64,000 nucleotides of DNA, taken from the NCBI GenBank assembly GCA_038890875.1, contig JAWAFA010000001.1, positions 258,617-322,616 on the forward strand, read 5' to 3'. This document shows, one piece after another, positions 6,676 through 43,638 of the stretch (the first letter of the stretch is position 1; the number at the start of each line of letters is the position of its first letter). A program made the translations under genes and the position numbers. The notes beneath the pieces were generated by a model, which was given only the letters and a program-made list of their open reading frames with translations, had not been told where the DNA came from and searched no databases. This stretch comes from Candidatus Pacearchaeota archaeon (GTDB lineage: Archaea > Nanobdellota > Nanobdellia > Pacearchaeales > JAPDKA01).

Positions 6676-7184
6676 AAGCTAAAACAAAAAAAGCGCAACA
6701 AGAGATTTTTGGTTTCGTAATAATCATTTTACTAGTTATTGTAATTGGTATAATTATTTTAACATTTTCTTTGCAACGAAGCTTAAGAAAGCCAACATTT
6801 GTTATCGATGTAAAAGTAAATGATTTGTTAAATGCTGTAATGCATTATACAACCGGATGCAAAAATAAGAAGATCAGTGAAATAATAGGAATAGTGGTAG
6901 TAAATAGTAATGAAAAATGTGATGGCGAGAATGCAAAAACTTATCTTGAAAATATTCTTAAAAATATTTTAAATGCAAGTTTTCCTGGTTTGGAATATGG
7001 TTATTTGAATGGTTATAATCTAACTATTTTTACCCAACCGCTAATTTCAATTACATCTGGTAAGCTGGAAGGAAATGTTGTTGTCGGTTCTTATATAATC
7101 CCTGTTTTTACAGAAGGTCAAGCAAGCAATATTGAAGCTAGGCTTTATCTTTATTATAGTGGCAAAAAGAGTGAAAAAGCTTAA
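6672..7184 (+). CDS. Pilin-like protein with a class III signal peptide.
   Basis: N-terminus MKAKTKKAQ/QEIFGFVIIILLVIVIGIIIL. This is the classic K-K-A-Q followed by a hydrophobic helix. Confidence 0.5.
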   Translation: MKAKTKKAQQEIFGFVIIILLVIVIGIIILTFSLQRSLRKPTFVIDVKVNDLLNAVMHYTTGCKNKKISEIIGIVVVNSNEKCDGENAKTYLENILKNILNASFPGLEYGYLNGYNLTIFTQPLISITSGKLEGNVVVGSYIIPVFTEGQASNIEARLYLYYSGKKSEKA

Positions 7185-8115: not shown

Positions 8116-9795
8116 TTATCTTTTGCGCTTTATTTTATATACCATTCTTACAATTTTGTAAATTATAATTGCAATAAAAATAGCTGTTAAAATTAACGTT
8201 GAATAGAAAATTTTTTGATAGGCATAAGGATAAACAGCCGGTTTTTCTGTTGGCAATACTTTTAAAATGAATGGAATCTCTTTAATTTCAATAGGGATTT
8301 TTTTATAAACAATCCTTGTATCATTAGCAATTATTCTTATCCAAAAGTCGTATGTTCCTTTTTTTATCTCTTTTTCACTACTAACATTTATTATTGTTTT
8401 TAACAAATTCTTTTTTTCTAAAAACTTCTTACTTACTACTTCCTGGCTTAGATTAAATAAACTTTCATTATCTCTTGGTTTTTCTATTAAAATTAATAAA
8501 TTCTGAAGATCTTGAAGAGGAACAAAATCAATTTCAATTTCAAATTGCTCTCCTTGGTAAATTTTTTTTGGAGCAAGTATGGTAAGTTCGTAACCTTCAA
8601 TCGCCACAGCCTCTTTAATTTCACAAGCTTTTATAACTTTCCGACCTAGAAAATAGGAGGGGCATTCGCAATAAATAAAAGAACTTTCCTGCCACCCACT
8701 GCATGCCCCGCTAATATCACAACTTCGAACAGCCCATTTTACTAACCGTGTTTCATTGAAAACAAGAATTTTCGGACTAGTTACATTACTTTCTATTACC
8801 CCCTCTAATTTAAATTCATCATAACAGGCCTGGCCTTCACTATCAAAATTTGCCGATTGCCATTCAAATCTTACCTCTTCGTTGCATACATTTTGTATTA
8901 CTGTTAAATTTGGTTTTGGGCAAGGCAAATTTTGTACACTGAAAGTATCAGTTGCCCAATCACTACATTGCCAAAAATCACAAGCACGAACTTTCCATTC
9001 ATGTAAGCCAAAGCTGAGTCCTTCAACAAGTTGAGGACTGGTTACATTTTCTCTAAGCTCAGAATCAATCATAAAGTCATAGCTTATAGGATCATTATCA
9101 GAGTCACTTGAATTTTGCCATTGTAACAGAACTGTATTATTGTTAGTATTTTGTTGGTCAATCAAAACAGGGGTAGTTGGTATAGAATTTAAAATTGTAA
9201 AGTTATCATAAGCGTCATCAGAACAGCATTGTGTATTGCAAGTCTTTACTTTCCATTCATGAAAACCTATAGCAAGATTGATTCTTGTTGCAGGACTTGT
9301 TATATTTTGCCAAATTCCATCTAGATAAAACATATCATAAGTTGGCAAGCCATTAGGATCTATTCCAGATGTCCAAGCAAAAGTAACATTATATGTTTTA
9401 TTCATAGGATGAAAATTGTTGACAGGTTGTAAAATAGGTACTGAAGGAGCCTCGCATAATGTTAAATTCAAACTTAAAACACCATATTCGTCCGCTTGCC
9501 CGATACCTCTTGCATAAAAGTTTCCTTTTTTGGCTTCAACCTCCCCATAGCTGTAAGGTTCGAGTGCAAGATTAGCTACAATATAATAACCATTATCTTG
9601 AGTCAACGTCTGTCGATTGCAATATTGTGAAGGTGCGGTACAGTTTATTATTAAAATATTAACAATTGCATTACTAGCATTAGTTCCATTAGAATAAAAA
9701 ACAAATCCATCAGCAACTCCGAGATAGATTTGTGCTTTTGCATTAATTAAGAGAATAAAAAAAGCTAAAATAGCAGCCAAAACTTCCTTTCTCAT
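8116..9795 (-). CDS. Surface protein with a signal peptide, repeated W/C-rich ~90-aa modules and a C-terminal TM anchor.
   Basis: N-terminal signal (AAILAFFILLINAKAQ). Repeated motifs HEWKVKTCNTQCCSD / HEWKVRACDFWQCSDW / VKWAVRSCDISGACSGW. C-terminal TM (LILTAIFIAIIIYKIV) plus a basic tail. Many NxS/T sequons. Confidence 0.5.
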   Translation of the reverse strand: MRKEVLAAILAFFILLINAKAQIYLGVADGFVFYSNGTNASNAIVNILIINCTAPSQYCNRQTLTQDNGYYIVANLALEPYSYGEVEAKKGNFYARGIGQADEYGVLSLNLTLCEAPSVPILQPVNNFHPMNKTYNVTFAWTSGIDPNGLPTYDMFYLDGIWQNITSPATRINLAIGFHEWKVKTCNTQCCSDDAYDNFTILNSIPTTPVLIDQQNTNNNTVLLQWQNSSDSDNDPISYDFMIDSELRENVTSPQLVEGLSFGLHEWKVRACDFWQCSDWATDTFSVQNLPCPKPNLTVIQNVCNEEVRFEWQSANFDSEGQACYDEFKLEGVIESNVTSPKILVFNETRLVKWAVRSCDISGACSGWQESSFIYCECPSYFLGRKVIKACEIKEAVAIEGYELTILAPKKIYQGEQFEIEIDFVPLQDLQNLLILIEKPRDNESLFNLSQEVVSKKFLEKKNLLKTIINVSSEKEIKKGTYDFWIRIIANDTRIVYKKIPIEIKEIPFILKVLPTEKPAVYPYAYQKIFYSTLILTAIFIAIIIYKIVRMVYKIKRKR

Positions 9796-10445: not shown

Positions 10446-10909
10446 CTTTCTTCTTTATTTTCTTTTATTCTCCTTTCTTTTGGTGTATAATTTAAAATTT
10501 TTATATATTTATTTTTTTTAATAAGTCCACATCCTAAAAAATCATTATTATGTTTTAAAACAATAAAACCTTCCTCTTTTGCTTCTTTCTTTTCTTTTTT
10601 TAAACTTAAACCTTGCATCCATTTCGCAAATTCATCATCATTGATGCTAATAAACTTTTTTATCTGAGTTGCGAAGAGTTGTGTAGCATCAAAACTTAAT
10701 CTAAACCCGCCATGCTCAAGCTTGCCAAGATAAAATCCAGCTCGTATAGCTAAAGGTAAAAAGTTTACACTTTCTCTTGGTGCGATAAAAATTTTTTTCT
10801 CAGCTCTTAAAAATACAAAATTAGGAGAAATTTTAATTCCATATTCCGCAAGAAAATTAACAATCTGTTTTTCTTCTTTTTTTCCAATAATTTTAAATTT
10901 TATTCTCAT
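10442..10909 (-). CDS. PUA-domain protein (Nip7-like). Likely partner of the adjacent NOP2/Sun RNA methyltransferase.
   Basis: C-terminal GFIVLKHNNDFLGCGL resembles the PUA G-x-V-x-V...LG-x-G pattern. Gene is adjacent to and co-oriented with the nop2/sun gene, which is a known archaeal neighbourhood. Confidence 0.4.
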   Translation of the reverse strand: MRIKFKIIGKKEEKQIVNFLAEYGIKISPNFVFLRAEKKIFIAPRESVNFLPLAIRAGFYLGKLEHGGFRLSFDATQLFATQIKKFISINDDEFAKWMQGLSLKKEKKEAKEEGFIVLKHNNDFLGCGLIKKNKYIKILNYTPKERRIKENKEER

Positions 10910-17529: not shown

Positions 17530-18645
17530 TTAGTGATAGTTAATTTTTATATCCTCTGGTTTTACCCCTTTAATTTCTATAGTTATGTTTCCGTATTTTA
17601 TTTTAAAAGTTTCATCGGTTTTGTTTTCAATTTTTGTTTCTATTTCTTTTATTTCCACTTTTTCTTGCTTAACCTCTTTTTTCCTTTCTCTTTTTTCTAA
17701 TGTTTGTTCTTTTTTCTTGTTAATCTTTTCAAGTGTTGTTTTTATTTCATCAAGTGAGGAGGCAATTTTTGAAATTTCAAATCCTTGTTTTTTAAGTCTC
17801 TCAAATTTTCTCTTGTAAATAGCTTCTACTTTTTCTTCAAGGGTAGCTTTTTCTCCAAGTTGACAATTTTTTGGTAGCAGAACTATTTGACCCTTTTTAA
17901 GGTACCCTCTTGTTATTTGTGGGTTTAATCTATTAATGAGATGATTATTACAAACTTTTCTAAGATTATATAAATCATTATTCGAGCTAGCATAATAGAT
18001 TTTAGCTTCTGAGAAGATGTCTTTGTCAGTTATTCTTTCTTCAATTTTCTTACATGAGTGAATTGTTTTTAAAATATTATTTATATAATTTCTAATAGTC
18101 TCTACTTTGTTTAACTTTCCAACTTTATCCTCTCCAGCAACATAAGCTACTAAAGCATCTTCTAGCCTCCTATATTTTTCTATCAAATCTCTTATTTCTT
18201 CAACTCCGGCAATGATGCTGAATGGCGAGAATCTCCAATCTTCATAATAGTTAATATTTAAGCCATGCCTCCTTGCAGTTGACTTCATAAGTTGCATTAC
18301 TCCAGCAGCCCATTTTGGGGAAAGTGCATAAGGATTTCCTTTTGATTCAACAAGAATCACTGCGGCAATAGTGCAAAAGTCAATCCCAAAGACATCAGCT
18401 GCAAAATCAATTATTTTTTTATATTCCTCTATATTACTTACCGCATCAATATAGCTTGAATAACAACTATTATCATTACAATAACTTTCAACTTCATTCG
18501 CTACTATTTTCACAATTTTGTTCCCACCAATGAGCCCCCCTCCCTCTAATCCATCCCCTTTAAAACTAGAAACGTTTATATTAAGCAGTGAAGAGAGTAT
18601 AAGAGTAGATAACAACTTTTTGTTATTTTTTATAATTTTTATCAT
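17530..18645 (-). CDS. Secreted lytic transglycosylase (Slt/family-1 SLT domain) with a Lys/Glu-rich coiled-coil C-terminus.
   Basis: Signal peptide. SLT motif I is VILVESKGNPYALSPKWAAGVMQLM (ES-GNP-A-S-AGA-G-MQLM). The C-terminal ~90 aa are a KE-rich coiled coil. Confidence 0.7.
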   Translation of the reverse strand: MIKIIKNNKKLLSTLILSSLLNINVSSFKGDGLEGGGLIGGNKIVKIVANEVESYCNDNSCYSSYIDAVSNIEEYKKIIDFAADVFGIDFCTIAAVILVESKGNPYALSPKWAAGVMQLMKSTARRHGLNINYYEDWRFSPFSIIAGVEEIRDLIEKYRRLEDALVAYVAGEDKVGKLNKVETIRNYINNILKTIHSCKKIEERITDKDIFSEAKIYYASSNNDLYNLRKVCNNHLINRLNPQITRGYLKKGQIVLLPKNCQLGEKATLEEKVEAIYKRKFERLKKQGFEISKIASSLDEIKTTLEKINKKKEQTLEKRERKKEVKQEKVEIKEIETKIENKTDETFKIKYGNITIEIKGVKPEDIKINYH

Positions 18646-25094: not shown

Positions 25095-25697
25095 TTGGAA
25101 AAGATGAAAAAAGTGAAGGAAAAAGAGAAAAAAAGTGAAGTGATAAAAAGCGAAGTTCAGATACCATTTACTTTTGCTATTTTAGTTATTTTTATTTTTG
25201 TATCTTTCTTTTGGCTTGATAAAATAAAAATTCCGAGAAGTTCTACTCTTGATAGCTTGCTCGCTCCATTTTTTGGGGCTTACAGCTATATCAGCCTGGT
25301 CTTTTTAATTTTCCTCGCTGGGGTTTTCTTTAACAGGATTTATAAATCAAACCTAAAGAAAGAGGCAAGTGCTTTGATTATAGCAATTTTGCTTGGCTTC
25401 TTGTTAAAAGCCATTGTTGGAAGAGCAAGACCTACTGAAGGCTTTTATCTTAGCAGTTCTTTTCCGAGCAATCATACTATAGCTATTTTTTCACTACTTA
25501 CATTTTTCCAAGGACTTGCTTTGATTGTTTGGCTTTTGCTAAGCTTGCTAGTTGCTTTTTCAAGAGTTTATTGGGGCTATCATTATTTTAGTGATATTGC
25601 CTTTGGCGCTTTTCTTGGCTATCTCGTCGGGTTTTTGATGAATAAAATATTAAAATCGAAGAAGGAAGGGGAAGCTAGAGCAAAGTCAAGCCAATGA
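25095..25697 (+). CDS. PAP2-family (type 2 phosphatidic acid phosphatase) integral membrane phosphatase.
   Basis: Three PAP2 motifs are present: KAIVGRARP, PSNHT and SRVYWGYHYFSD. Multiple TM helices. Confidence 0.8.
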   Translation: MEKMKKVKEKEKKSEVIKSEVQIPFTFAILVIFIFVSFFWLDKIKIPRSSTLDSLLAPFFGAYSYISLVFLIFLAGVFFNRIYKSNLKKEASALIIAILLGFLLKAIVGRARPTEGFYLSSSFPSNHTIAIFSLLTFFQGLALIVWLLLSLLVAFSRVYWGYHYFSDIAFGAFLGYLVGFLMNKILKSKKEGEARAKSSQ

Positions 25698-25781
25698 GTG
25701 AAGCAAATGAGTGAGAACATAATTTTGATTAGTAGAATAGTAAGTAGTTAGAAAATGCGCTAAAGAAGCAATAACTTTTGC

Positions 25782-26507
25782 TTATAGTAATTTCCAGATT
25801 AATTCAAATATTTTTTTTTGAGTTTGCGCAATATCTTTATTTTTTATTATAACTCCAATTAATTTTTCTTTGTTCATTGTTAGAAACGCTACGTTTTCAT
25901 TATAAATATAAGTCATTGTGTTTATTTTTATTTCTTTTGGAAGAAATTTGGTTTTAGTATAGGTTTTATTTCTTAATTTAAGTTCTTTATTAATTTTGTC
26001 CGTTTTTTCTTGTATTATTCTACAAAATATTTTTTCTTTTATTCTCTTTTCACTCCAGTGAGGAAAATAAAATTCCAAGGTTTTAAATATTTCATCACAT
26101 TCTATTACTAGAATTTCTTCGGGCTTTATTTTTAATATATTTTCTAATATTGTTTTTATTCCTTCAACTCCTTCATAAATTTCTATTTCTGGTTTTTCTT
26201 CTACTGTCTTTTTTATTTGCTCTAATTTTGGAATTATAGATTTAATAGTATTTAATTTTTCTTCTTCTATTTTTAAAACTCTTTTTGGATCAACTGCCTC
26301 AAAATATCTAGTTCCTGATTTGATAGTATAAAAAACAAGTCCTTTTTTTAATAAAGAATTCAAAATACTATAAATTGTTGTCCTAGGAAGATTTAATCTT
26401 TTTGATATTTCATTAACTTTAGAATTACCTAATTTTAATAATTCTATATAGATCTCTGCTTCTTTATCATTTAGTCCTATTTTTTTTAAAGCATATTTTT
26501 CTTCCAT
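25782..26507 (-). CDS. TrmB-family transcriptional regulator, paralogous to the one at 19830-20609.
   Basis: HTH IGLNDKEAEIYIELLKLGNSKVNEISKRLNLPRTTIYSILNSLLKKGLV. Divergently oriented to the three-gene unknown cluster. Confidence 0.65.
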   Translation of the reverse strand: MEEKYALKKIGLNDKEAEIYIELLKLGNSKVNEISKRLNLPRTTIYSILNSLLKKGLVFYTIKSGTRYFEAVDPKRVLKIEEEKLNTIKSIIPKLEQIKKTVEEKPEIEIYEGVEGIKTILENILKIKPEEILVIECDEIFKTLEFYFPHWSEKRIKEKIFCRIIQEKTDKINKELKLRNKTYTKTKFLPKEIKINTMTYIYNENVAFLTMNKEKLIGVIIKNKDIAQTQKKIFELIWKLL

Positions 26508-26756
26508 TTTATTATAATTTTTTCTTTTTTATAAATCTTTTTTATAGTCCATTTTTGACAACAAAAATATAAATAATACAACTACTAAGGAGAGAGTATA
26601 AGAGATTAAAGAAAATGACAAAGGAAAAATATGAAAAAGAAAAAAGATATGTAGAAAGTTATGAAGATTTAGCAAAATATCCTTCATTGTCAGAAGGAAA
26701 GAATGAATTAGAAATCATGTTCAACAAAATAAATCGAACACGACGCGATGAAGTAA

Positions 26757-27650
26757 ATGGAGGGGGTGGAGAAAATGGAATTTGAAAAAATAATTTTGCA
26801 AAAACCAAAAAGAGAAAATTTACCTGAAATGCCAGAGTTAGTTAAACAATATTGTGATTTAAAAAGTTATAAGCCTGCTGGAAAGGTTTTTAGCATAGAA
26901 ATTAAACATAAGAGTAGGGATTCAAAAACAGACGGCATGGCTTATTTCAATGAGCTAGTAGTGAATAAAGAAAATAAAGTAGTCTATAGTAGTGGAATGA
27001 TGAAATATAGAGGAGCTTATAACTGGGAAATTGATAATCACGACACCCAGTTGTTTGATCCTTCAATTTTAGAAGAAAAAAGTAATGAAGTAGTATTTGG
27101 ATTAAGAACTGGTGCAGGAAACATAAAAATATACAGATTAAAGGGAAATGAACTAAAAGAACTTTACACCTTTGACATCGATGGTTATAGGAAAAAGAAG
27201 AAAAGAAATGAATTAATTAAAAAGATTCTTGAAGATCCAGATGAATGGGTGAAGTACATTGAAAATGAGCAAGGGCATCATTGGTATATTGATTCTTCGA
27301 GAATGCGTGATTTGAAAAATGAAAAAGAAAAGGGAAATGAATGGAGGGACGATTACCAAATTCTTGATGACGGAAATTTGATTATAGCACTAGCGAAACA
27401 TTACGATAGAGACTATGATCCTATCGTAGATTGTTATTATGTGTACTTTTGGAAAAAAAGGGTTGGTATGGCAAAATCAAAAACTTACTATACAGGACTT
27501 TGCCACCCTTGGGGAAAATTTTATATAATTGAGGTTAGATTTTTAGAACCAGCATCTTATGATAAAGATAAACAGATAGTTATAGCAAAAATAGGAAATA
27601 AGGGGCAAAACAAAGTAATAGAACACAAATTTAAGTTAGAAGAAAAATAA
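26757..27650 (+). CDS. Hypothetical cytoplasmic protein (cluster gene 1). The true start is probably the ATG at 26775, after a GGAGGGGGTGG SD.
   Basis: 297 aa with no signal peptide or TM and no recognisable motif. Shares a conserved upstream leader with the next gene. Confidence 0.45.
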   Translation: MEGVEKMEFEKIILQKPKRENLPEMPELVKQYCDLKSYKPAGKVFSIEIKHKSRDSKTDGMAYFNELVVNKENKVVYSSGMMKYRGAYNWEIDNHDTQLFDPSILEEKSNEVVFGLRTGAGNIKIYRLKGNELKELYTFDIDGYRKKKKRNELIKKILEDPDEWVKYIENEQGHHWYIDSSRMRDLKNEKEKGNEWRDDYQILDDGNLIIALAKHYDRDYDPIVDCYYVYFWKKRVGMAKSKTYYTGLCHPWGKFYIIEVRFLEPASYDKDKQIVIAKIGNKGQNKVIEHKFKLEEK

Positions 27651-27736
27651 GGAGTTAGAAAATTGAAAGAAGTATAATAACAAAAACAAAAGCCAATCGA
27701 GCACGACGCGATGAAGTAAATGGAGAGGTGAAGAAA

Positions 27737-28519
27737 ATGAAAAATTTCGAAAAGTATGTGGAAGAAGCGAAAGAAGGGAAGAAAATGATAATATATGTGT
27801 CTGACTCGTGTTATTCTGATATCCGTATTCCTCTTGAATATTATAAGTCTAAACTAGAAAGAATGATTTCACTTGATCAGTATACTGAAGATATTGCTAG
27901 TTTTCTATTGCTAATAGATAATGAAAGGACTTTGAGAGGTATTGTACAAGACTATTTATGCGAGTTTGGAAAAGATGAGTTTGGCTTAGTAGAAGCACTA
28001 AAGAAGTTAGTTCCAGAAAAAGATGAAAAATCATCTAAAGTTCTTTTGTATCATGGTCTTTGCAGTGAGTTTAGAAAAGGATTAAAAAAAGAAGAACTAA
28101 AAAAACTTGGAATAGAATATGCCGTAGATTTTCATCATTATCCAGACAATCCATTTGCATACGAATTAGAAGAAACTATAAAAAGTTTGGATTCGAAAAA
28201 ATATGATAACTTAATGAAAGTGATAAATGACACAAAGAAAAGAGAAGAAGAAATTTTGAAACAAGTAAATGAAAAGATTCCTATAAAGTATACAAGTGAT
28301 TTTATTAAAGTAGGAGAGTTTCTAAAAGAGTTAGATTTATCAAAGCAACATTTTTGTTTAAATTATATCATAGGAAAAATCACTGATACAGATTATATGA
28401 GAGGATTCATTTATCTTGGTGCTGGAGAATTAGATGCAGCTAAAAAAATGGCAGACATGACAAACTCTGCCTTTAATAAAGAATGGTTATTAAAAGAAAT
28501 CGAAAAACGAAAAAAGTGA
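27737..28519 (+). CDS. Hypothetical cytoplasmic protein (cluster gene 2).
   Basis: The ORF track uses the GTG at 27728. The ATG at 27737 lies 8 nt after a GGAGAGGTGA SD. No recognisable domain. Confidence 0.45.
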   Translation: MKNFEKYVEEAKEGKKMIIYVSDSCYSDIRIPLEYYKSKLERMISLDQYTEDIASFLLLIDNERTLRGIVQDYLCEFGKDEFGLVEALKKLVPEKDEKSSKVLLYHGLCSEFRKGLKKEELKKLGIEYAVDFHHYPDNPFAYELEETIKSLDSKKYDNLMKVINDTKKREEEILKQVNEKIPIKYTSDFIKVGEFLKELDLSKQHFCLNYIIGKITDTDYMRGFIYLGAGELDAAKKMADMTNSAFNKEWLLKEIEKRKK

Positions 28520-28540
28520 ACGAATGGGTGGTTGAAGAAA

Positions 28541-29209
28541 ATGACAAAACCACTGGAAATATTGGTTGTGGAAGATGGTGTTGAAAATTTAGAAAATTGT
28601 AAAAAAGCATATGAACCACTGATGAAAGAGGGGCTCATTATACCTTATTACGCCACTAATTACAAAGAAGCAGAGCCTTTAATTGATAAAGTGAATGCAG
28701 GAATTTTAGATCTTTATTTTCCAGCAGAAAATGGGGAAGAGATGATCAAAGAATTTGCTAGAAAATACGATAGAGGTAGTGGGTTTCCTAAAGAAGTAAA
28801 AGCTAATGATATGTATCCTATGGGCCTAATCATTGCTGATAAACTTGCTGAACAAGGAAAACCATCAATATTTGTAAGTCCAATTGCTAGTGGCCATGGA
28901 TCACATAACAATCCATTTTATCCATTGAGATATGCTATAGATAGTGAAAAAATACCTAAAGAAATAAAAATAGCATGGTCTGCTTGTGAGAATCCATACA
29001 GTTTTGAGGAATATGGCAGTCCTACATTTGTATCTTATATGTTAAGAGTAGATTCACAATGGTTTAGAGATTACATAGAAAAGATACCAGAAGTATGGCT
29101 TGCTTCTGTTAAAGCAATAGCCGCACTCTTAAAAAGAGAAGATATTTACAATAAAATAAAAGTTGATAAACTTGTAGAAAAAAATATAGAGGAATTTTAT
29201 AAAAAATAG
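28541..29209 (+). CDS. Hypothetical protein whose N-terminus looks like a response-regulator receiver domain (cluster gene 3).
   Basis: LEILVVEDGVENLENCKKAYEPLMKEGLII...AGILDLYFPAENGEEMIKEF was aligned by eye to the REC pattern (acidic pair, a phosphoacceptor-position Asp in ILDL, then a ...P..G.E helix). The C-terminal ~130 aa are unknown. The ORF track uses the TTG at 28532. Confidence 0.4.
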   Translation: MTKPLEILVVEDGVENLENCKKAYEPLMKEGLIIPYYATNYKEAEPLIDKVNAGILDLYFPAENGEEMIKEFARKYDRGSGFPKEVKANDMYPMGLIIADKLAEQGKPSIFVSPIASGHGSHNNPFYPLRYAIDSEKIPKEIKIAWSACENPYSFEEYGSPTFVSYMLRVDSQWFRDYIEKIPEVWLASVKAIAALLKREDIYNKIKVDKLVEKNIEEFYKK

Positions 29210-29511
29210 TAACTTATGGAGATAGAAAGAATCAAATATTTTGATAGCCGTCGGCCAATTTTTATAAAAATAAAAGTTTATTAGATAAATCAAAATTTTT
29301 GAATAATAAGAAAGTATTTTTTAAAAGTTTATTTAAAGATTTAAAAAAAAGATAAGCAAAAAAGCCAGGTAGTTGGATTTTTAGATAAATTTTATTTAAA
29401 AGATCAGTTAGATAGCCACATTTTTGACAGAAAAAAATATTAAAGTTTCAATAAGAATATACAAAAATATAAAAATTAATGAAATAAAAGCTTCGATAGT
29501 TGAGCTACTAA

Positions 29512-29823
29512 ATGACATCTTCCGACATGTTCAAAATTTATAATCAAAAAGATGAATGGCTGTGTGGTTTTCTTGTAGGAAAAAATATAATGCATGTTTA
29601 TTTATATCCAAAAAGAAATTGGAAGAGTAATTTTAAAAGTAATTTACTTTACGAATTTGGCACTGTATACAACCTTATTTTCGAACATTTAATTGCTGAA
29701 GGTTTAGCAGAAAGTATGGAAAAAAATTATTCTTTTCATAAAGCTCTATTCTTCGGAAATAGAATATCCTTTATGGAGTGGATACACACAGTAGAGGACA
29801 TATTAAAAGGGAAGAAAAAATAA
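29512..29823 (+). CDS. Hypothetical small protein inside an otherwise non-coding ~820-bp AT-rich gap.
   Basis: 103-aa ORF with no motif. Coding status is uncertain. Confidence 0.25.
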   Translation: MTSSDMFKIYNQKDEWLCGFLVGKNIMHVYLYPKRNWKSNFKSNLLYEFGTVYNLIFEHLIAEGLAESMEKNYSFHKALFFGNRISFMEWIHTVEDILKGKKK

Positions 29824-30033
29824 ACTGGAAAGAAATATTAAGAAAAAATCCTTTTAGCTTCAAAAATAAATTAAAGAATTGGTTCTATTAGAAACATAAA
29901 TTAGTAAACGTAAAACATGCCTCAAGTACATGCAGGTTTTTTAAGCTTTTGCTCACGTTCATCATCAACATTGAGTTAAAAGCAAAGAAATAAAAATATT
30001 AACAAGCATATATTAGAAGCAAAAAGAGGTCAA

Positions 30034-31344
30034 ATGCCAGACATATGGATTGGAAGAAGTGAAGAGGATAGAAAAAAATTTGGCGATAAGGGCTTGATTT
30101 ATATTGGAAAACTTTGGGTTAGGATGGAACATCTTGTCAATTTAAGTAATCTCGTCTTACTTGATCTTGCAAGAAGTCATATAATAATGGTTTGTGGAAA
30201 AAGAGGTAGTGGAAAGTCATATACGCTTGGAGTTATTGCTGAAGGTATAACAGATATGCCTGAAGAAGTAAAAAGTAACATAGCTCCTCTTATCTTTGAT
30301 ACAATGGGTATTTACTGGAGTATGGCCTATAGAAATGATAAAGAAATAGAACTTTTGCGAGAGTGGCAGCTTAAGCCAAAAGTATTACCTGTCAGAATAT
30401 TTGTACCATATGCTTATTACGACGAATTTGTAAAGCGTGGCATAGGCAAAATCTTACCATTCGCTTTAAAGGTTTCTGATGTTAGCCATGAGGACTGGCT
30501 TATAACTTTTGATTTGGGTTTCACTGATCCAGTAGGAATAGTTATCCAAAAAGCGATAATAAAGTTACGCGAGAAGAAGACTGACTATGACATTGATGAT
30601 ATAATCACTCTAATCAAAGCTGATGAAGAAAGTGAGAAGCAGCATAAGCTAGCTGCTATAAATATATTTGAAGCTGCTAAAGCTTGGGGAATTTTTGCAA
30701 CTAAAGAACAAAAAGCAACAACGTCGAGAGAATTACTAGAGGCAGGTGTAACAACTGTGCTTGATTTGAGTATGTACAGTAGTGTAGGGGCTTATAATGT
30801 TAGAGCTCTTGTTATTGGTCTTCTATGTAAAAAAATTTTCAATGAGCGCATGCTTGCAAGAAAACTTGAAGAAGTAGAAGCAGTAAGAAGAGGGCTTGAG
30901 TATCTTTATTTCAAAGAAAAACGAGAATTGCCACTTGTTTGGATTTTTATCGATGAGATGCATGAATTTTTGCCACGAGAAGGAAAAACAGCAGCAAGCG
31001 ATGCATTAATCCAATTGCTGCGAGAAGGGAGGCAGCCAGGCATAAGTCTTGTGTTTGCTACTCAACAACCAGGAAAACTTCATACAGATGCTATAACTCA
31101 AGCCGACATTATAATTAGCCATAGACTTACAGCAAAGCCTGATTTAGATGCATTAAGTGAAATAATGCAAAGTTACCTTGCCGAAGATATAATTGCTTAC
31201 ATGAATAATCTTCCTCGTTATAGAGGCTCCGCTCTTGTTCTTGATGATAATAGTGAGAGAATATATAGCATCCGTGTTAGACCACGCTTCACTTGGCATG
31301 GTGGAGAAGCACCAACTGCAGTAAAAGTTGAAAAACGAGAATAA
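30034..31344 (+). CDS. HerA/FtsK-superfamily P-loop ATPase (DUF87-like).
   Basis: Walker A VCGKRGSGKSYTLG. Walker B VWIFIDEMHEF. A HerA/VirB4-type ...LVFATQQPGKL...ADIIISHRLT segment. No TM. Confidence 0.65.
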   Translation: MPDIWIGRSEEDRKKFGDKGLIYIGKLWVRMEHLVNLSNLVLLDLARSHIIMVCGKRGSGKSYTLGVIAEGITDMPEEVKSNIAPLIFDTMGIYWSMAYRNDKEIELLREWQLKPKVLPVRIFVPYAYYDEFVKRGIGKILPFALKVSDVSHEDWLITFDLGFTDPVGIVIQKAIIKLREKKTDYDIDDIITLIKADEESEKQHKLAAINIFEAAKAWGIFATKEQKATTSRELLEAGVTTVLDLSMYSSVGAYNVRALVIGLLCKKIFNERMLARKLEEVEAVRRGLEYLYFKEKRELPLVWIFIDEMHEFLPREGKTAASDALIQLLREGRQPGISLVFATQQPGKLHTDAITQADIIISHRLTAKPDLDALSEIMQSYLAEDIIAYMNNLPRYRGSALVLDDNSERIYSIRVRPRFTWHGGEAPTAVKVEKRE

Positions 31345-31442
31345 CTAATCTTATTTGTTCTGAAAGCAAAAAAGTGCAATTTTTTAAAAACATAATATTT
31401 TTAAATCTAAAAATATTAACTTAATAGTAGTAAAGTTTAAAA

Positions 31443-32411
31443 ATGAAAAACCATCTTAAAAAAATAATCAATTTTTTGCTTGCCTCAAGTATTTTTTTTA
31501 CTTATACTGCCGCAGCCGTACCTAAATCAGTTGAGTCGATCAAACCTATCCCAAAAGAAATTAAGGACATCTCTATGTATCAGGAATGGCTTGATCGATA
31601 TGAATTGAATAATTATAATTATTCAAGTGAAAATTTTTATTCTTGTTTTCAGAGAATGGAAAAATATAGGAATATAATAGAAAAAGCAGCAAAAGAGTCA
31701 AGATTGCCTGTTTGCGAGTTAGAAGCTTTAATAGCGATTGAATCTTGCGGTTTGTTAAAAGCACATTCAAAAGCTGGAGCAAGTGGACCAGCACAATTAA
31801 TGTATGGAAAAGCTAAAGAATTTGGAATAAAAATAACTAGTACTGAAGATTGGAGATATAGTGTAGATTCGATTTTTCCAGCGGCTAAATATTTCGCAAA
31901 GGTGAAAAAAAATTATGGATTGGAGAATGCACTAATAGCTTATAATGCTGGTGAGAGTAAAGCTAACAACATTAATCATCTTGAAGAGTGGGAAGATAAG
32001 AGGGATTATATACCATATGAAACACAAAAGTATGTTCCAAGATTTATGAATGCGGCTGTCCAATGCCTTGAATATGAAGAAGAGAGAAAAAATCATGTAA
32101 AAATAGCTCAAAAAGGAGATACATTATGGAAAATAGCTAAAGAATGTAAAAGTAATGTAGAAAAAATAAAAAAAATTAATGGAATTTCCGGTAAAAAGAT
32201 ATTCTCTGGGCAAAAAATAGTGTGCAGTGAAGATTATTTTGACATATTTGCTAAAGCAACCTTTTATACTGTTAAAACAAATGATACTATGGCAAAGATA
32301 GCTAGAAAATATGGAATTTCACCAGAGCTGTTAAAATATCTAAATCCACAGATAAAAAAATTTTCCAACTTAACTCCAGGAATGAAAATAAGAATAATAA
32401 AAAGTGAATAA
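31443..32411 (+). CDS. Secreted lytic transglycosylase (SLT domain) with two C-terminal LysM domains.
   Basis: Signal peptide. SLT motif IAIESCGLLKAHSKAGASGPAQLM with a downstream AYNAG. LysM 1 is VKIAQKGDTLWKIAKECKSNVEKIKKINGI. LysM 2 is YTVKTNDTMAKIARKYGISPELLKYLNP. Confidence 0.75.
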   Translation: MKNHLKKIINFLLASSIFFTYTAAAVPKSVESIKPIPKEIKDISMYQEWLDRYELNNYNYSSENFYSCFQRMEKYRNIIEKAAKESRLPVCELEALIAIESCGLLKAHSKAGASGPAQLMYGKAKEFGIKITSTEDWRYSVDSIFPAAKYFAKVKKNYGLENALIAYNAGESKANNINHLEEWEDKRDYIPYETQKYVPRFMNAAVQCLEYEEERKNHVKIAQKGDTLWKIAKECKSNVEKIKKINGISGKKIFSGQKIVCSEDYFDIFAKATFYTVKTNDTMAKIARKYGISPELLKYLNPQIKKFSNLTPGMKIRIIKSE

Positions 32412-35119: not shown

Positions 35120-35360
35120 AAGGAAGGTGTAAGCAGGTATAAGCCTCCTTTTGTCGCTCGATATTGAGCGTTCAGCATTCTACTAAGCGGCTCAGAGCGA
35201 GCCTTGCACGCTTAGGCTGGCCGTTTCATCCACAAGCAAGCTCGTGGTCTCGTTTCTGTGCCAGAGCCGTGCCTTTCGACACGTGCTTTTCAGCACTAAG
35301 CGTTTTATGTGGGAGGACTTTCCTCTCGTAAAACGAGACAGCTGAGCCCTGCTTACATAA
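35120..35360 (-). ncRNA. rnpB: Probable RNase P RNA, minimal/compact form (~235 nt).
   Basis: A GC-rich island in the AT-rich intergenic region. The minus-strand transcript has a 9-bp terminal P1 stem (GUAAGCAGG / CCUGCUUAC). Just downstream of P1 is GAGAGGAAAGUCCUCC (CR-I, the P4 5' strand). Near the 3' end is ACAAAAGGAGGCUUAU (the ACAGAA-CCGGCUUAU-like CR-V, P4 3' strand). There is an internal GGCACAGAAAC. Confidence 0.55.
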
Positions 35361-36815: not shown

Positions 36816-38060
36816 TTACATTTTCTTTACTATCCTTTCGACATCACTATCCATCCCCTTTTTTTTATAATATTCAATAACTTTCTGGTATAACTCTCTA
36901 GCTTTTTCGATCATGCCAGCATCGTTGGCCATATCAGCTATTTTTTCATAGTTTTCAATAACTTTCTTATACAACTCTTCAACCTTCTCTTCCATACCAT
37001 ATTCACTCGCTAATTTGAAGGCATTATCAAACATCCCCGCTTTTTCATAAATCTCGACAGCCTTTTCACCCATTTTTGCCTCAATTGCAATTCTTACAGC
37101 ATCATCAATCCTTCCTTTTTTCTCATAATCTTCAATAGCCTCCTTATACAACTCTTTTGCTTTTTCTTCATTTCCCTTCTCTTTAGCTAATCTAGCAGCA
37201 ACATCTTTAAATCCTGCTTCTTCATAATCCTTAATTGCTCTCTCTATCATATTAGCTTCAAGAGCTATCTTTGCAGCATAAACAAACATTCCTTTTTTCT
37301 CATAATCTTCAATAGCCTCCTTATACAACTCTTTTGCTTTTTCTTCATTTCCCTTCTCTTTAGCTAATCTAGCAGCAACATCTTTAAATCCTGCTTCTTC
37401 ATAATCCTTAATTGCTCTCTCTATCATATTAGCTTCAAGAGCTATCTTTGCAGCATAAACAAACATTCCTTTTTTCTCATAATCTTCAATAGCTTTAAGA
37501 TAAAATTGCTGAGCTATACCTTTAATACCTGCCTCAAGAGCTATCTTTGCAGCCTCATAAAACCTCTTTTTGTCCTTATACCCCTCAATAACTTTCTTAT
37601 ATAACTCTTCAGCCTTATCCTTCATACCATGCTCACTAGCAACTTTAGCAGCAATATAAGTTAACCCTGCTTTTTCATAAATCTCGACAGCCTTTTCACC
37701 CATTTTTGCCTCAATTGCAATTCTTACAGCATCATCAATCCTTCCTTTTTTCTCATAATCTTCAATAGCCTTTAGATACAACTCTTTTGCTTTTTCTTTC
37801 ATCTCAATTTTACTTGCTATCTTTGCACTATCATAAAACTTCCCTTTACTTTCATAATACTTAATAACTACTTGATAGAGTTTTTTAGCTATTTCTTTCA
37901 TCCCTAAATTAAGAGCAATAGTAGCGGCTTCTTCGCAATCTTTAATAATTTCCGCACGTAACTTTTCGGCTCTCTCAGTCATCCCTATTGAAAGCGCAAA
38001 TTTAACTGATTTTTCACGTTCTTTAATAGATTTAAGCATTTGCTCTAGGTCGGCTTTCAT
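36816..38060 (-). CDS. Alpha-helical tandem-repeat protein (~38-aa Sel1/TPR-like units).
   Basis: Repeats of A.KIA.EA.M.E.A...YEKAG...AA.LA.E.G.EEKA.ELYK.AIEDYEKKG, with two 59-aa blocks that are identical at the protein level. Confidence 0.55.
   Translation of the reverse strand: MKADLEQMLKSIKEREKSVKFALSIGMTERAEKLRAEIIKDCEEAATIALNLGMKEIAKKLYQVVIKYYESKGKFYDSAKIASKIEMKEKAKELYLKAIEDYEKKGRIDDAVRIAIEAKMGEKAVEIYEKAGLTYIAAKVASEHGMKDKAEELYKKVIEGYKDKKRFYEAAKIALEAGIKGIAQQFYLKAIEDYEKKGMFVYAAKIALEANMIERAIKDYEEAGFKDVAARLAKEKGNEEKAKELYKEAIEDYEKKGMFVYAAKIALEANMIERAIKDYEEAGFKDVAARLAKEKGNEEKAKELYKEAIEDYEKKGRIDDAVRIAIEAKMGEKAVEIYEKAGMFDNAFKLASEYGMEEKVEELYKKVIENYEKIADMANDAGMIEKARELYQKVIEYYKKKGMDSDVERIVKKM
37140..37495. 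repeat. Near-perfect tandem duplication (~177-bp unit x2) within the helical-repeat gene.
   Basis: The sequence ...ttcaatagcctccttatacaactcttttgctttttcttcatttcccttctctttagctaatctagcagcaacatctttaaatcctgc... recurs identically starting ~177 bp later. Confidence 0.8.
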
Positions 38061-41379: not shown

Positions 41380-41600
41380 GAGAAAATCTTCCTTCTTATG
41401 ATTCTCTCTTCTATATACCATTAAAAAAATTCAAAAGAGAACCACAAAAAGATAAAGCAAGATCGACTAATAAAAAATTTCAGGAAGAAATTGATATAAT
41501 AATAAGAAATTTTTTTGAAAAGTTTAAGGTTGACTATTCAGAATATAAAAATGCAGAAGATGCAGTAGAGAAAATAAAAGCTACTCTTCTTTGTCACTAA
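41301..41600 (+). CDS. Hypothetical ORF overlapping the NTPase ORF in a different frame. Possible C-terminal part of the same frameshifted gene.
   Basis: 99-aa ORF overlaps 41301-41379 with the upstream gene. The combined length (~175 aa) matches a single small NTPase. Confidence 0.3.
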
Positions 41601-42549
41601 CTCCATACTGAGTTATAAAAAAAACTGTTTCATTATCGGGAAGATTTGGGCTATCTATAAGCTTAACTATTCTACTATTTGATTTGCCGCGCCTAAAATA
41701 AAGCCTGTAAGTTGAGGCATGCCCAACTATATGGCCACCTATAGCTCTTGTTGGATCACCAAACATCATTGCTGGATCAGCCATAACTTGGTTTGTAACA
41801 TAAACAGCAAGATTATATTGTTCAGCTAGTCGCATTAAAATATGTAAATATTTGTTTAATTTTTGCTGTCTATCAGCGAGAGTACCTCGTCCTGTATATT
41901 CAGCTCTAAAATGACTTGTCAATGAATCTACAATGACTAATTTAATTGGCTCACCTTCTCTCAACATTTCTTGAACTTTATCAAGCAACAATATTTGATG
42001 GTCACTATTAAAAGCCCGAGCAACATAAATATTATTAAGAGTTTTTTCAGGATCAAGGCCTTTAGCTAGAGCCATTTGTTTAATCCGCTCTGGTCTAAAT
42101 GTACCTTCAGTATCTATATAAATTGCCTTTCCATTTGCTCCTCCTTCTTCGAGTGACATTTGCACATTGACAGCAAGTTGATGGGCGACTTGTGTTTTGC
42201 CAGAACCAAAAGCACCAAAAGCTTCAGTTATTGCTTTAGTCTCAACACCTCCTCCTAATAAATTATCAAAGTTCTTGCTATTTGTTGTTATTTTTATTAT
42301 CTCTTTTCTTCTTCTCTCATAAGCAACACCAGTATCGAAATCAAGTTTTAACAACTTTCTTGCTGCAGCAATAATCTTTCGCGCCACTCCTTCAGAAACA
42401 TCAATAGCAGTTCCGAGTTCTGCTGGCGGCATTACTGCAATTGCCATCAGATCAGTAAAACCAGCATCTTCGAGCTTTTTAGCAATAGTGCTTCCAACTC
42501 CAGGCAAATCTTTTATTTCATACTCCTTTTCTTTTGCCTTTTCAGCCAT
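41581..42549 (-). CDS. radA: DNA repair and recombination protein RadA.
   Basis: N-terminal HhH ([17 protein letters not shown]). Walker [10 protein letters not shown]. RecA-fold core. 322 aa. Confidence 0.9.
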
Positions 42550-42612: not shown

Positions 42613-43638
42613 TCATTTATGCCTCTTTTTCTTTCTATTTTTGGTTTTTTTATATCTGCAATAGCCTTTTTTTCCCTCATTTTTTACTAGCATCATTGCT
42701 TCATCGGCATGTTTTAAGAGCTCTAGCATAGAATTGGCATCATAGCCATAGGTCGCACAACCTACACTAACTCCTATTTTGCCTCTGAACTCTCGCACTT
42801 CTTTCGCAAATTCAATTGTTGCATAATTACTGACCTCTTTGACAATTCTTCGTGCAATTTTATCAACTTCTTTTGGAGAAGCTTCTGGGATGATAATTAC
42901 AAACTCATCCCCTCTGTAACGCCTTCCTAAAGTATCTATAGAACGACAATATTTTCTTAAACCTTCAGCAATTAACTTTAATGCTAGATCGCCTCTTAGA
43001 TGATTATAGTTATCATTTATAGCTTTAAAATTATCAACATCTATGAAAAGAAGTGAGACATATTTTTTCTTTTTGCTTCTTTTTGCTCGCTCTACTTCTT
43101 TTTTTAATTGTTCGATTATATATCTTTCATTAAACAAGCCTGTTAATGAGTCAATCATCACCTCACGCTTCAATGATTCGATTTCTTTTGTTTGTCTTGC
43201 TCCAAGAAGATGTACTAATTTCTCAATTCTTTTCATTTCTTTTAGTACTTCATAGGCTTCTACCCTACTTTTCTTAAAAAAATAAAACTTTAATTTTGAT
43301 ATCCCATCAGTAATTTTTGGAGCAACATAACTTAACATTATATCTGCAAATTGGTTTTTCCTTGCCCTTTCTTCTTCATGATTATTTGAATCTATTTCTG
43401 ACATTAGGGTATACTGCCTTTTCATTATTGTTCTAAGATTGCCTATAAGCTCTCTAAGCATTATTCTAGCATTTATATAATCTTCATAAGTAAATTTTTT
43501 AGAGTAGTGTGCATACTGCATATTCAAACTATCACTCTCTTCTTGGATGCCCTTTAATTCCTTCAAAAATCTTTCTACATAAATTCTTACTTTTTTGTCT
43601 GCACTTTTTAACATCTCTTCAAAAACCTTATTTTTCAT
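42613..43638 (-). CDS. GGDEF-domain protein (diguanylate-cyclase fold) with a degenerate active-site motif and an N-terminal coiled-coil region.
   Basis: DSLTGLFNERYI..., FIDVDNFKAINDNYNHLRGDLAL, and RYRGDEFVII where RYGGEEF is expected (the first Gly is replaced by Arg). No TM. Confidence 0.65.
   Translation of the reverse strand: MKNKVFEEMLKSADKKVRIYVERFLKELKGIQEESDSLNMQYAHYSKKFTYEDYINARIMLRELIGNLRTIMKRQYTLMSEIDSNNHEEERARKNQFADIMLSYVAPKITDGISKLKFYFFKKSRVEAYEVLKEMKRIEKLVHLLGARQTKEIESLKREVMIDSLTGLFNERYIIEQLKKEVERAKRSKKKKYVSLLFIDVDNFKAINDNYNHLRGDLALKLIAEGLRKYCRSIDTLGRRYRGDEFVIIIPEASPKEVDKIARRIVKEVSNYATIEFAKEVREFRGKIGVSVGCATYGYDANSMLELLKHADEAMMLVKNEGKKGYCRYKKTKNRKKKRHK

Follow-up and report, generated by a model that had tools for sequence, protein, structure and literature searches.

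The closest described relative of the ATPase encoded at this locus is HerA, a protein of about 500-600 aa that carries a HAS-barrel and whose gene usually neighbours that of NurA, often together with those of Mre11 and Rad50. The HAS-barrel is the NurA-docking face in HerA-NurA complexes. Unlike HerA, the ATPase studied here has 436 aa, with Walker A already at residue 55 and no HAS-barrel, and none of these HerA neighbours was found adjoining its gene in 86 loci; it is only 19% identical to HerA of Saccharolobus solfataricus (PDB 4d2i). The transfer ATPases VirB4, TrwB and CedB, as well as the C-terminal domain of DptH (DndH), score below HerA, and none of them reached E<=1e-3 in a profile search of PDB sequences. 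The channel, pilin, coupling and Dnd/Dpt partners of these systems are missing beside the ATPase, which is a core syntenic gene and no cargo of mobile or defence islands. The DNA upstream of it resembles flexible genomic islands or replacement hot spots, in which presence and absence alleles occupy a fixed site between conserved genes in co-occurring strains, and its cargo is rare, compositionally deviant and mosaic.

The original prediction for this window (the whole stretch of 64,000 nucleotides that was analysed) described an orphan ATPase preceded by a largely non-coding gap. According to our analysis, three things are very probably juxtaposed here: a pseudogene at an island edge, a strain-specific island and a separate core ATPase. 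What had looked like a gap and an "orphan" ATPase turns out to comprise a pseudogene, a flexible island of small size and a core gene, which is mostly annotation housekeeping, and the locus overall is ordinary, with a few modest curiosities. The features are as follows.

25095-25697, forward strand: gene for a membrane phosphatase of the PAP2 family, conserved and flanking the island on the left (PF01569 on the identical L100 gene and on the orthologues in L001, L008 and L009)
25710-29977, strand not applicable: strain-specific accessory island of 4,268 bp, a replacement allele (blastn and pairwise junction alignments)
25782-26507, reverse strand: TrmB-family winged-helix regulator (PF01978, 72 bits), divergent from the island's gene array
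26732-26774, forward strand: leader copy 1 (AATCGAACACGACGCGATGAAGTAAATGGAGGGG...), direct repeat D3, ending at the p297 start codon
26775-27650, forward strand: p297, a rare beta-rich protein of 291 aa from a conserved ATG
27695-27736, forward strand: leader copy 2, direct repeat, ending at the p263 start codon
27737-28519, forward strand: p263, an orphan protein of 260 aa
28541-29209, forward strand: p225, a distant receiver (CheY)-like protein of 222 aa
29216-29891, forward strand: pseudogene of a DUF2268 (PF10026) predicted Zn-metalloprotease (phmmer with ORF103, tblastn of PF10026 proteins)
29512-29823, forward strand: ORF103, the longest frame of the pseudogene that is still open, a GenBank "hypothetical protein"
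29892-30033, forward strand: true intergenic spacer, with an oligo-T run at about 29937-29942
30034-31344, forward strand: core HerA-clade ATPase of 436 aa without a HAS-barrel (Pfam, profile searches, predicted monomer, synteny)
31443-32411, forward strand: secreted lytic transglycosylase (SLT) with two LysM domains (PF01464 and PF01476), present in the sibling strain L006

A core HerA-clade ATPase without a HAS-barrel

The predicted ATPase motifs were confirmed as GKRGSGKS (residues 55-62), WIFIDEMHEF (residues 303-312) and ATQQPGKL, with nt 30196-30219 encoding Walker A and nt 30940-30957 encoding Walker B. These Walker motifs, together with a RecA-like core and a conserved Arg/Gln region, assign the protein to the FtsK-HerA superfamily. 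The DUF87/HerA central domain was detected by Pfam at 31.7 bits, above the cut-off, the HerA-type motif REGRxxG...QxP is present, and the best matches in sequence and structure were all HerA, ahead of VirB4, TrwB and FtsK. In the profile searches suggested with the original prediction, the scores stayed far below all NCBIfam HerA equivalog cut-offs (37 bits against 970 for NF040819 and 36 bits against 800 for NF040937), and the NCBIfam CedD match reached 24.8 bits against a cut-off of 600. PADLOC returned only moderate matches at the superfamily level (mad8 at 63 bits, HerA at up to 59 bits). The N-terminal HAS-barrel of about 100 aa is absent, because only 54 residues, poorly structured in the predicted monomer, stand ahead of Walker A. 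The C-terminal tail TWHGGE(A/S)PTA is strictly conserved and family-specific. HerA-containing anti-phage defence systems (Nezha/HerA-Sir2, HerA-DUF4297, MADS mad8, Dnd/Dpt) were also considered and rejected, since no partner genes were found and the gene is core. Nothing specific was found in the literature on this ATPase family in DPANN.

The ATPase is no orphan. It has thousands of full-length homologues, it is present in strains with an empty island site, and it lies in a conserved block of replication genes that runs RFC-s, RFC-l, (SSB-like), DsbA-like (-), ATPase (+), a variable slot, Trm5/TYW2 (-), FEN1 (-) and PolB (+). The gene for the exported DsbA-like protein, which is no DNA enzyme, is its commonest immediate neighbour. 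The remaining large ORFs of the window are presumably the counterparts of PolB, RsmB, FEN1, DinB and TYW2, to judge by the gene order and gene size of the relatives. Streamlined genomes can keep gene order without a functional link, which calls for caution in assigning a function to the ATPase.

In Pacearchaeota the ATPase gene belongs to the core and is inherited vertically; its product combines a RecA core of the HerA type with a helical insert. Read only from its fold, predicted as a monomer, and from its gene neighbourhood, the protein may well form a hexamer that uses ATP to translocate DNA during replication-linked repair or the resolution of chromosomes, a function that we propose tentatively. 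The ATPase defines a large, strongly conserved and uncharacterised HAS-less HerA-clade family, near-universal in Pacearchaeota and situated between the RFC and FEN1/PolB genes, which could be an uncharacterised essential replication/segregation motor and is a reasonable target for studying DNA repair and segregation in minimal archaea.

Alternatively, the protein would be a bona fide HerA minus the HAS-barrel, working in DSB end resection with NurA (and Mre11/Rad50) encoded elsewhere. The uniformly HerA top matches, the REGRxxG...QxP motif and the replication/repair neighbourhood, with RadA encoded in the window, agree with this reading, which we nevertheless consider unlikely: the equivalog scores of 36-37 bits fall short of cut-offs of 800-970, and without a HAS-barrel the protein has no NurA-docking face. 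In line with the original prediction, which saw no NurA in the window, NurA, Mre11 and Rad50 were found neither among the 38 window proteins scanned nor among the recurrent neighbour families of the 86 loci.

The SLT-LysM gene lies directly downstream of the ATPase (31443-32411), so that the earlier statement that secretion partners are lacking is, taken literally, not quite correct. As the motor of an envelope-crossing machine for DNA or protein transfer (VirB4-, Ced- or Ted-like), the ATPase would act together with the adjacent peptidoglycan hydrolases (SLT-LysM, M23) to gain access to a bacterial host; this is decidedly unlikely, as SLT adjoins the ATPase in only 4 of the 86 loci and is a neighbour, no conserved partner. 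Moreover, no membrane-channel, pilin or other pilus components of the VirB4/type IV secretion/Ced/Ted kind (VirB2/3/6/8-like, CedA/TedC) occur among the neighbours in the 86 loci, the ATPase has neither a transmembrane segment nor a membrane-anchoring partner, and HerA scores above VirB4, TrwB and FtsK whether sequences or structures are compared. A housekeeping DNA translocase remains the preferred assignment.

The AT-rich stretch ahead of the ATPase

The gap of about 820 bp ahead of the Walker A/B ATPase was borne out as an AT-rich stretch of 824 nt (29210-30033), bounded by the stop of the preceding ORF at 29209 and the ATPase ATG at 30034. Its GC content is 0.250, against 0.317 for the window, and falls to 0.205 in the first 302 nt; values of <=0.20 occur in only about 0.4% of 300-nt windows. 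It would be the largest intergenic gap of the window, and the original prediction rightly called it exceptional among closely spaced genes, the median spacer between called genes being 43 nt.

The stretch is not, as had been claimed, largely non-coding. When ORF103 was used as a phmmer query against the full library, it matched P0139, P0140 and P0141, all of which carry PF10026; ORF103 alone had no Pfam match, and tblastx of the gap against related loci had found no remnant coding before phmmer supplied these DUF2268 homologues. Intact homologues score 85-92 bits on PF10026. In tblastn, the N-terminus, middle and C-terminus of DUF2268 proteins map onto the gap in frames 3-2-3-1-3-2-1, with six frame switches as well as in-frame stops. 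An internal deletion of about 35 codons was also found, and the HExxH motif is gone (HEFAH has become YEFGT). The gap copy is thus like the DUF2268 (PF10026) predicted Zn-proteases in its recognisable N-terminal, central and C-terminal segments, and differs from them in having no intact frame and no HExxH at 29216-29891. By sequence comparison, the AT-rich "gap" is a dead gene for a predicted Zn-protease of the DUF2268 family. The 103-aa ORF, formerly called dubious, does exist as a frame and is a surviving fragment of this gene; the GenBank "hypothetical protein" ought to be annotated as a pseudogene. In L019, an intact DUF2268 orthologue with 25.7% GC stands at the corresponding place ahead of the ATPase. 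Because the gene is AT-rich even when intact, the low GC of the gap is for the most part a property of this accessory gene itself.

The true spacer begins only at 29892. Homology with the empty-site strains picks up again at 29978, so that an ancestral segment (29978-30033) is contained within it, and the window, L006, L001 and L019 share GCAAAGAAATAAAAATATTAACAAGCA without a difference. A TATA-like box rich in A and T lies in this segment and would belong to the putative ATPase promoter (at about 29985-30005), as does GAGG, the ribosome-binding site of the ATPase gene.

The AT-rich stretch had also been taken for a possible replication origin or other non-coding regulatory hub, in keeping with its low GC and with PolB and FEN1 within about 15 kb. 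This is extremely unlikely, since coding remnants explain almost the whole stretch and it is missing in sibling strains. TRF and repeat scans of the gap returned low-complexity A/T repeats only and no ORB-like repeats, there is no adjacent Orc1/Cdc6 gene and no Rfam match, and GC skew tracks gene strand, with no local inflection at the gap.

The strain-specific island and its origin

An accessory island of 4,268 bp, with the pseudogene as its right-hand end, separates the PAP2 gene from the putative promoter of the ATPase itself. The sibling strains L006 and L007 have a 94-nt spacer in place of the island. The right flank, with the ATPase, is 99.3% identical between the window and the siblings, and the PAP2 gene on the left is 95.0% identical to that of L006, a comparison for which only about 600 bp were available. 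Three independent assemblies, L100, L101 and L102, agree at 100% identity over the island itself, and both the island and the empty allele occur in one sampling series. The island's GC content of 0.280 belongs to the lowest 0.4% of equal-size windows and makes it the lowest-GC 4.3-kb stretch of the window, and its tetranucleotide distance is in the top 2%, which answers the k-mer check suggested originally. The view of the gap as a sign of foreign or accessory DNA was correct, since it closes off a 4.27-kb island at the distal side and near-identical siblings lack this island. Neither the gap nor the gene order is conserved in relatives; over 74 loci, the spacer ahead of the ATPase has a median length of 94.5 nt.

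The island contains the TrmB-type regulator, a small ORF, p297, p263, the receiver-like p225 and the DUF2268 pseudogene, and these parts have different nearest relatives. The p297 segment of the island shares 88.7% identity with a MAG that has been placed in a different phylum. For p263, no Pfam, NCBIfam, PHROG or PDB-sequence match was found, and in related arrays no homologue beyond 12 common N-terminal residues. Only five homologues of p225 were found; it has no direct Pfam match, and blastp linked it to PF00072-bearing proteins of L013 and L012 (E 4e-8 and 9e-6). Its gene is 84.6% identical at the nucleotide level to one in L017, where it stands beside TBP and again behind the leader described below. 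None of the island's genes occurs in 80 metagenome loci. Neither the 25.6-30.1 kb interval nor the contig with the empty site gave an Rfam match at permissive thresholds, and folding z-scores of the empty-site spacer and of the hairpin/T-run region were within noise.

A compositionally deviant, AT-rich flank could suggest that gap and ATPase form one integrated mobile element or provirus, with the gap as its boundary and the ATPase as a packaging or transfer motor; weak PHROG matches to a terminase-like family and weak Pfam matches to Zot and FtsK point the same way. This is very unlikely, and membership of the ATPase in such an element is effectively refuted by its retention in empty-site strains, at 99.3% identity. 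Its thousands of orthologues lie in conserved chromosomal synteny, no relatives were found in IMG/VR or GenBank phages, and no phage or plasmid matches were obtained for the ATPase, p297 or island DNA; a viral or proviral genome with capsid neighbours, as expected for a packaging ATPase, was not seen. The signs of an integrative element are also lacking. None of the 38 window proteins scanned has an integrase domain, as originally stated, and the nearest tRNA is 5.4 kb away. Direct and inverted repeat searches of 25.4-30.3 kb found no att-like repeats above chance, bounding either the island or the 29.2-32.4 kb interval for which the check had been suggested, and junction-to-junction alignment of the island gave a best score of 12 against a shuffle mean of 11.4.

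The missing integrase, tRNA target and terminal repeats, the unequal flank identities (95% against 99.3%), the mixed relatives and the leader at the joints suggest that homologous or illegitimate recombination, and no site-specific integrase, brought the island in and rearranged it. It would have landed just upstream of the ATPase promoter, leaving the promoter undisturbed. The same filled/empty polymorphism, with the same right junction, occurs in a second species (L019 against L001). Because the empty allele has 94 nt that are missing from the filled one, neither of the two can be derived from the other in a simple way, and on sequence grounds the filled/empty comparison in the two species does not settle the polarity of the event.

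Were the island ancestral, L006 and L007 (and L001 in the other species) would have deleted it, and the window would show the older, decaying state. We regard this as rather unlikely. The DUF2268 gene does stand upstream of the ATPase in the second species too (L019), its copies in L019 and the window are 78-90% identical at the nucleotide level, resembling the 78-79% of the ATPase itself, and the pseudogene shows long residence and decay. However, the 94-nt sequence is about 98% conserved between the two species, and because it is absent from the filled allele, simple deletion cannot yield the empty one. The PAP2 gene is directly upstream of the ATPase in L001 and also abuts it in the more distant L008 and L009. 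The deviant composition, the absence of island genes from all 80 metagenome loci and the cross-phylum identity of the p297 segment speak against an ancestral island as well. Acquisition by recombination is the reading we prefer; the cargo shares 85-89% nucleotide identity with other MAGs, one of them assigned to another phylum, and this identity together with the filled/empty allele pair directly shows that genes have recently moved and decayed in DPANN archaea with reduced genomes.

Leader sequences and gene arrays

The two leader copies form direct repeat D3 (34 nt at 94% identity), and their 19-mer core occurs twice in the window, with zero occurrences expected. The leader spans about 45 nt, consists of ATCGnG-N5-CnCGAT and a strong ribosome-binding site, and lies at mosaic joints of the island. 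No significant RNA fold was found in it (z-score within noise). It is common to the island genes and to gene arrays in other DPANN MAGs. Exact-pattern scans found it in only one Aenigmatarchaeota MAG among the GTDB representatives, and not in JGI metagenomes or IMG/VR.

The island invites comparison with integron cassette arrays, as a short conserved sequence stands before each cargo gene here and coincides with the mosaic joints. It differs from such arrays in having no integrase, no attC-like structured site and no transposase, and its repeated element is located 5' of each gene. Because of this position and the included ribosome-binding site, the element resembles a shared operator and 5'-UTR more than a recombination site. 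The leader is probably an operator and 5'-UTR through which the TrmB-type regulator is predicted to control each gene, and regulators homologous to the island's TrmB-family gene flank p297-type arrays in L013 and L014.

Cassette exchange could move rare genes between DPANN lineages in one hot spring, with the leader as its handle. That the leader is indeed the recombination handle of an integrase-free cassette exchange, or else that the HAS-less ATPase is an essential replication/segregation motor, is a doubtful pair of prospects. Over 72 nt, leader copy 2 and the first 12 codons of p263 match the start of L012_259, a gene that is not homologous, at 95.8% identity. Several genes in L012 and L017 are preceded by the same leader, and the array of L014 carries a different repeated one.

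The AT-rich gap upstream of the ATPase gene

The features discussed here, in window positions, are:
25095-25697: PAP2 gene, left neighbour of the island
25710-29977: island
29210-30033: AT-rich gap
29216-29891: DUF2268 pseudogene
29512-29823: ORF103
30034-31344, plus strand: ATPase gene (436 aa)

The original prediction described an orphan HerA/FtsK-superfamily ATPase gene preceded by a long, AT-rich and largely non-coding gap. The observation itself was confirmed, because the size and GC content of the gap, all quoted ATPase motifs and the Pfam assignment (DUF87/HerA central domain above gathering score; HerA_C, Zot, FtsK and TrwB sub-threshold) check out. The stop of a 225-aa ORF (29209) and the ATPase start (30034) are separated by 824 nt with a GC content of 25.0% (20.5% in the first 302 nt), while only ~0.4% of 300-nt windows have a GC content of 20% or less. 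No other gap in the window is as long, provided that ORF103 is not counted as a gene.

The description of the gap as non-coding did not hold. ORF103 alone matched no family, and HMMER, run in full against 1.84 billion representatives, identified three relatives, P0139, P0140, and P0141 (E 3e-23 to 9e-7), in which the ORF103-like segment is merely the middle of a longer protein; all three belong to PF10026 (DUF2268, 'predicted Zn-dependent protease'). When these proteins were searched against 29100-30100 by tblastn, the rest of the gene was recovered in other frames: the N-terminus begins with an ATG at 29216, seven bases past the upstream stop codon, ORF103 forms the middle, and a third frame at 29802-29888 supplies the 29 C-terminal residues (KINWKEILRKNPFSFKNKLKNWFY; 83% identity, E 3e-16). 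The DUF2268 matches switch frame repeatedly (3-2-3-1-3-2-1) and meet several in-frame stops, YEFGT stands where the catalytic HEFAH was, and a deletion after AEGLAE has removed about 35 codons; 29216-29891 is therefore a decayed pseudogene, which leaves a true spacer of 142 nt upstream of the ATPase. The AT-richness of the gap is mainly intrinsic to this accessory gene, since an intact orthologue likewise has a GC content of only 25.7% (pseudogene, 24.3%; ATPase, 37-39%), and a regulatory or origin role of the gap found no support. ORF103 is called a hypothetical protein in GenBank (QW244_01605) and is actually a pseudogene fragment. Two MAG contigs end at about 29170-29210, within or beside the AT-rich stretch.

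The island and its filled and empty alleles

The suggestion that the gap marks accessory DNA stood, as the gap is the end of a 4,268-bp strain-specific and compositionally deviant island. Two sibling strains (L006 and L007, short contigs of the same run series, SRR27730042/43) match the window at 99.3% identity over 29978-31801 and at 95.0% over 25121-25709. The window carries 4,268 bp (25710-29977) in place of their short spacer, because they join the two matching segments through only 94 nt; the gap is thus absent in these relatives and not part of a conserved arrangement. The 94-nt spacer (L006:600-692; L001:7840-7935) is in turn missing from the window, so the island is a replacement rather than a clean insertion. 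Three relatives further removed (ATPase 85-88% aa identity) have PAP2 next to the ATPase, at a distance of 191 nt upstream in one, 1 nt in another, and with an overlap in the third. An assembly artefact was rejected, since an independent 16-kb Logan contig, which extends from PAP2 to past the ATPase, and two further contigs carry the island at 100% identity.

At 28.0%, the island has the lowest GC content of any 4.3-kb segment of the window (within the lowest 0.4%), and its tetranucleotide deviation is in the top 2%. The att sites expected to bound an element were not recovered, the junction-to-junction similarity scoring 12 against a shuffle mean of 11.4. No integrase was found in the island, no tRNA nearby, and no viral, phage, plasmid or defence-system relationship for the island.

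The same polymorphism was found in a second species, in which L019 is filled and L001 empty, as are the window and L006/L007, respectively. L019 and L001 share 99.1% identity from just upstream of the ATPase onward, and an intact DUF2268 gene in L019 replaces the PAP2 and spacer of L001. The right junction is the same in both species, whose ATPase genes are ~21% different. The empty-site spacer, which gave no Rfam match and no significant fold, is ~98% identical across both species, while the flanking genes share only 79-83%; either the element is non-coding and conserved, or the allele was exchanged recently. Because the polymorphism spans two species and the spacer outconserves its flanks, the polarity of the event (gain or loss) is uncertain, and the same two observations argue for the exchange of whole alleles via homologous recombination in the flanks. 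The unequal identity of the window to its sibling (left flank 95%, right flank 99.3%) fits such an exchange.

Homology with the empty-site strains restarts 56 nt before the ATPase ATG. The segment GCAAAGAAATAAAAATATTAACAAGCA, followed by a GAGG ribosome-binding site, is shared unchanged by the window, L006, L001, and L019 and is plausibly the BRE/TATA of the ATPase. We infer that the island lies just outside the ATPase promoter, which stays intact; island transcripts could terminate at an oligo-T run near 29937-29942.

Island genes and their shared leader

The island encodes a TrmB-family regulator (minus strand, 72 bits), a 56-aa ORF, p297, p263, p225, and the DUF2268 pseudogene. Only eight homologues of p297 were found among 5.8 billion clusters, the closest (80% aa and 88.7% nt identity over 1 kb) in the 'Aenigmatarchaeota' hot-spring MAG JZ-2_201705_bins_247, where it leads an array behind a divergent HTH regulator. 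The distantly receiver-like p225 has five homologues, one of which is 84.6% nt identical and adjoins TBP on another Pacearchaeota contig; p263 has no detectable relatives.

A GC-rich leader of ~45 nt (AATCGAGCACGACGCGATGAAGTAAATGGAGGGGTGAAGAAA-ATG), which combines a strong Shine-Dalgarno sequence with the inverted repeat ATCGnG-N5-CnCGAT, precedes p297 and p263, and a degenerate copy precedes p225. Its copies are:
Window: 26732-26774, 27695-27736, and about 28497-28540
L012 (DPANN contig): 8930-8975, 9603-9640, and 10518-10558
L017 (DPANN contig): 244-288

On L012, at least three to four genes in a row, none related to another, carry the leader upstream, as does the p225 homologue on L017. Over the leader plus the first 12 codons, p263 shares 95.8% identity with L012_259, to which it is not homologous, and therefore homology breaks just inside the genes. 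Exact-pattern scans found the leader in only one GTDB representative genome, and no significant RNA fold was detected for it. From this distribution, we infer that the leader may serve as a common operator and 5'-UTR for a TrmB-type regulator, and that it may also be a recombination substrate by which array genes would be shuffled; this leader-linked cassette mosaicism is a modest lead. A related array (p297-like, REC-like, TrmB) at L014:6230-8640 has a different repeated leader of ~70 nt (CCCTCTTTATCGGAATCTTGACTGTCAGAA..GTTCAGTAGAGA) before four consecutive genes.

The ATPase and its genomic setting

The ATPase proved neither orphan nor element-borne: it has 6045 significant matches in a word-indexed search, its neighbours include RFC, FEN1, and PolB in conserved order, and island genes occur in 0 of 85 other ATPase loci. 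The best 120 matches are 60-99% identical over the full ~436 aa, those with a named source mostly being called Pacearchaeota, and scanning metagenomes confirmed 566 among the first 600 candidates. ORFs were called and clustered in 86 loci and recurrent families annotated; by consensus, the genes run RFC-small(+), RFC-large(+), [SSB-like OB(-)], DsbA-like membrane protein(-), ATPase(+), [0-2 variable genes], Trm5/TYW2(-), membrane protein(+), FEN1(-), PolB(+).

Recurrent neighbours of the ATPase
DsbA-like, immediately upstream: 39 of 74 loci
Trm5/TYW2: 54 loci
RFC: 35 loci
FEN1: 31 loci
PolB: 21 loci
RFC-large, directly upstream and co-directional: at least 6 loci

The slots on either side vary: ~9.6 kb of unrelated genes separate the ATPase from TYW2 in the more distant relative L008, M23 and SLT fill this slot in L001 and L019, and the PAP2-ATPase segment is inverted in the window relative to L001. 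Both flanks are rearrangement-prone, and the ATPase is a fixed landmark inside a plasticity zone, because the conserved order persists while both adjoining slots vary. Relative to L001, 11977-33880 has five extra genes (pentapeptide, TrmB, radical SAM, PRTase, 235 aa) between SLT/TYW2 and PAP2.

Among structural and family matches, S. solfataricus HerA 4d2i leads (33.0; 328 residues, 19% identity), followed by the DptH C-terminal domain (28.9), VirB4 (26.8), TrwB (20.2), FtsK (17.5), and STIV B204 (16.7), and a profile of 44 family members matches only HerA proteins among PDB sequences. The HAS-barrel is the defining feature of HerA proper. Unlike HerA proper, the ATPase lacks it, as only 54 poorly ordered residues precede Walker A, and it scores 36-37 bits against NCBIfam HerA equivalogs with cut-offs of 800-970. 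Since HerA matches lead but the barrel is absent and the equivalog scores fall below cut-offs, the protein is filed as a member of the HerA clade of the FtsK-HerA superfamily, yet not HerA. A HerA orthologue partnered by a distant NurA, to which the leading HerA matches would be congenial, is unlikely; NurA, Mre11, and Rad50 were found neither in 38 scanned window proteins nor among recurrent neighbours. An envelope-crossing transfer motor acting with SLT/M23 hydrolases, such as those beside the ATPase in L001 and L019, is rather improbable, SLT being present in only 4 of the 86 loci. PAP2 was likewise found in 4 loci. We tentatively favour, at somewhat under even confidence, a DNA translocase that forms a ring and acts in chromosome resolution or in repair associated with replication.

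At the C-terminus, the tail TWHGGE(A/S)PTA is invariant across the family, one member (P0065) carries an intein (PF14890) within the Walker A/P-loop (GKRG|C...HN|SGKS), and no relatives were found in viral collections. This uncharacterised HAS-less HerA-clade family is a modest lead; overall, the region is largely ordinary, with a pseudogene within a small flexible island beside a conserved gene. In PADLOC, the ATPase matches best to mad8 (MADS defence system; 63 bits, entire 314-position model covered); with no further mad genes nearby, this is read as superfamily-level similarity.

The window, which has a GC content of 31.7% and tightly packed genes (median spacer 43 nt), comes from the chromosome of a DPANN archaeon belonging to Pacearchaeota and contains an archaeal RNase P RNA (35129-35356, 145 bits), four tRNAs, Sec61-beta, HisRS, and RadA. 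Its most tetranucleotide-deviant part, 8-7184, comprises six co-directional ORFs (645, 745, 179, 316, 180, and 170 aa), several with overlapping start and stop codons, and one opposite-strand ORF (130 aa), none with a Pfam match. Two SLT-domain lytic transglycosylases are encoded at 17530-18645 (-) and 31443-32411 (+), one of them next to TYW2, an arrangement shared with L001; murein hydrolases of this bacterial type are already known as peculiar to Pacearchaeota among such archaea's traits (PMC8204110). A GGDEF diguanylate-cyclase domain protein (42613-43638, minus strand, 126 bits) adjoins RadA (41581-42549), and in four other loci a DisA-type DAC protein follows the ATPase at a distance of 2-3 genes. 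Finally, 36816-38060 (minus strand) encodes a 414-aa protein made of near-identical TPR/SNAP-like repeats, with long internal duplications seen in translation.
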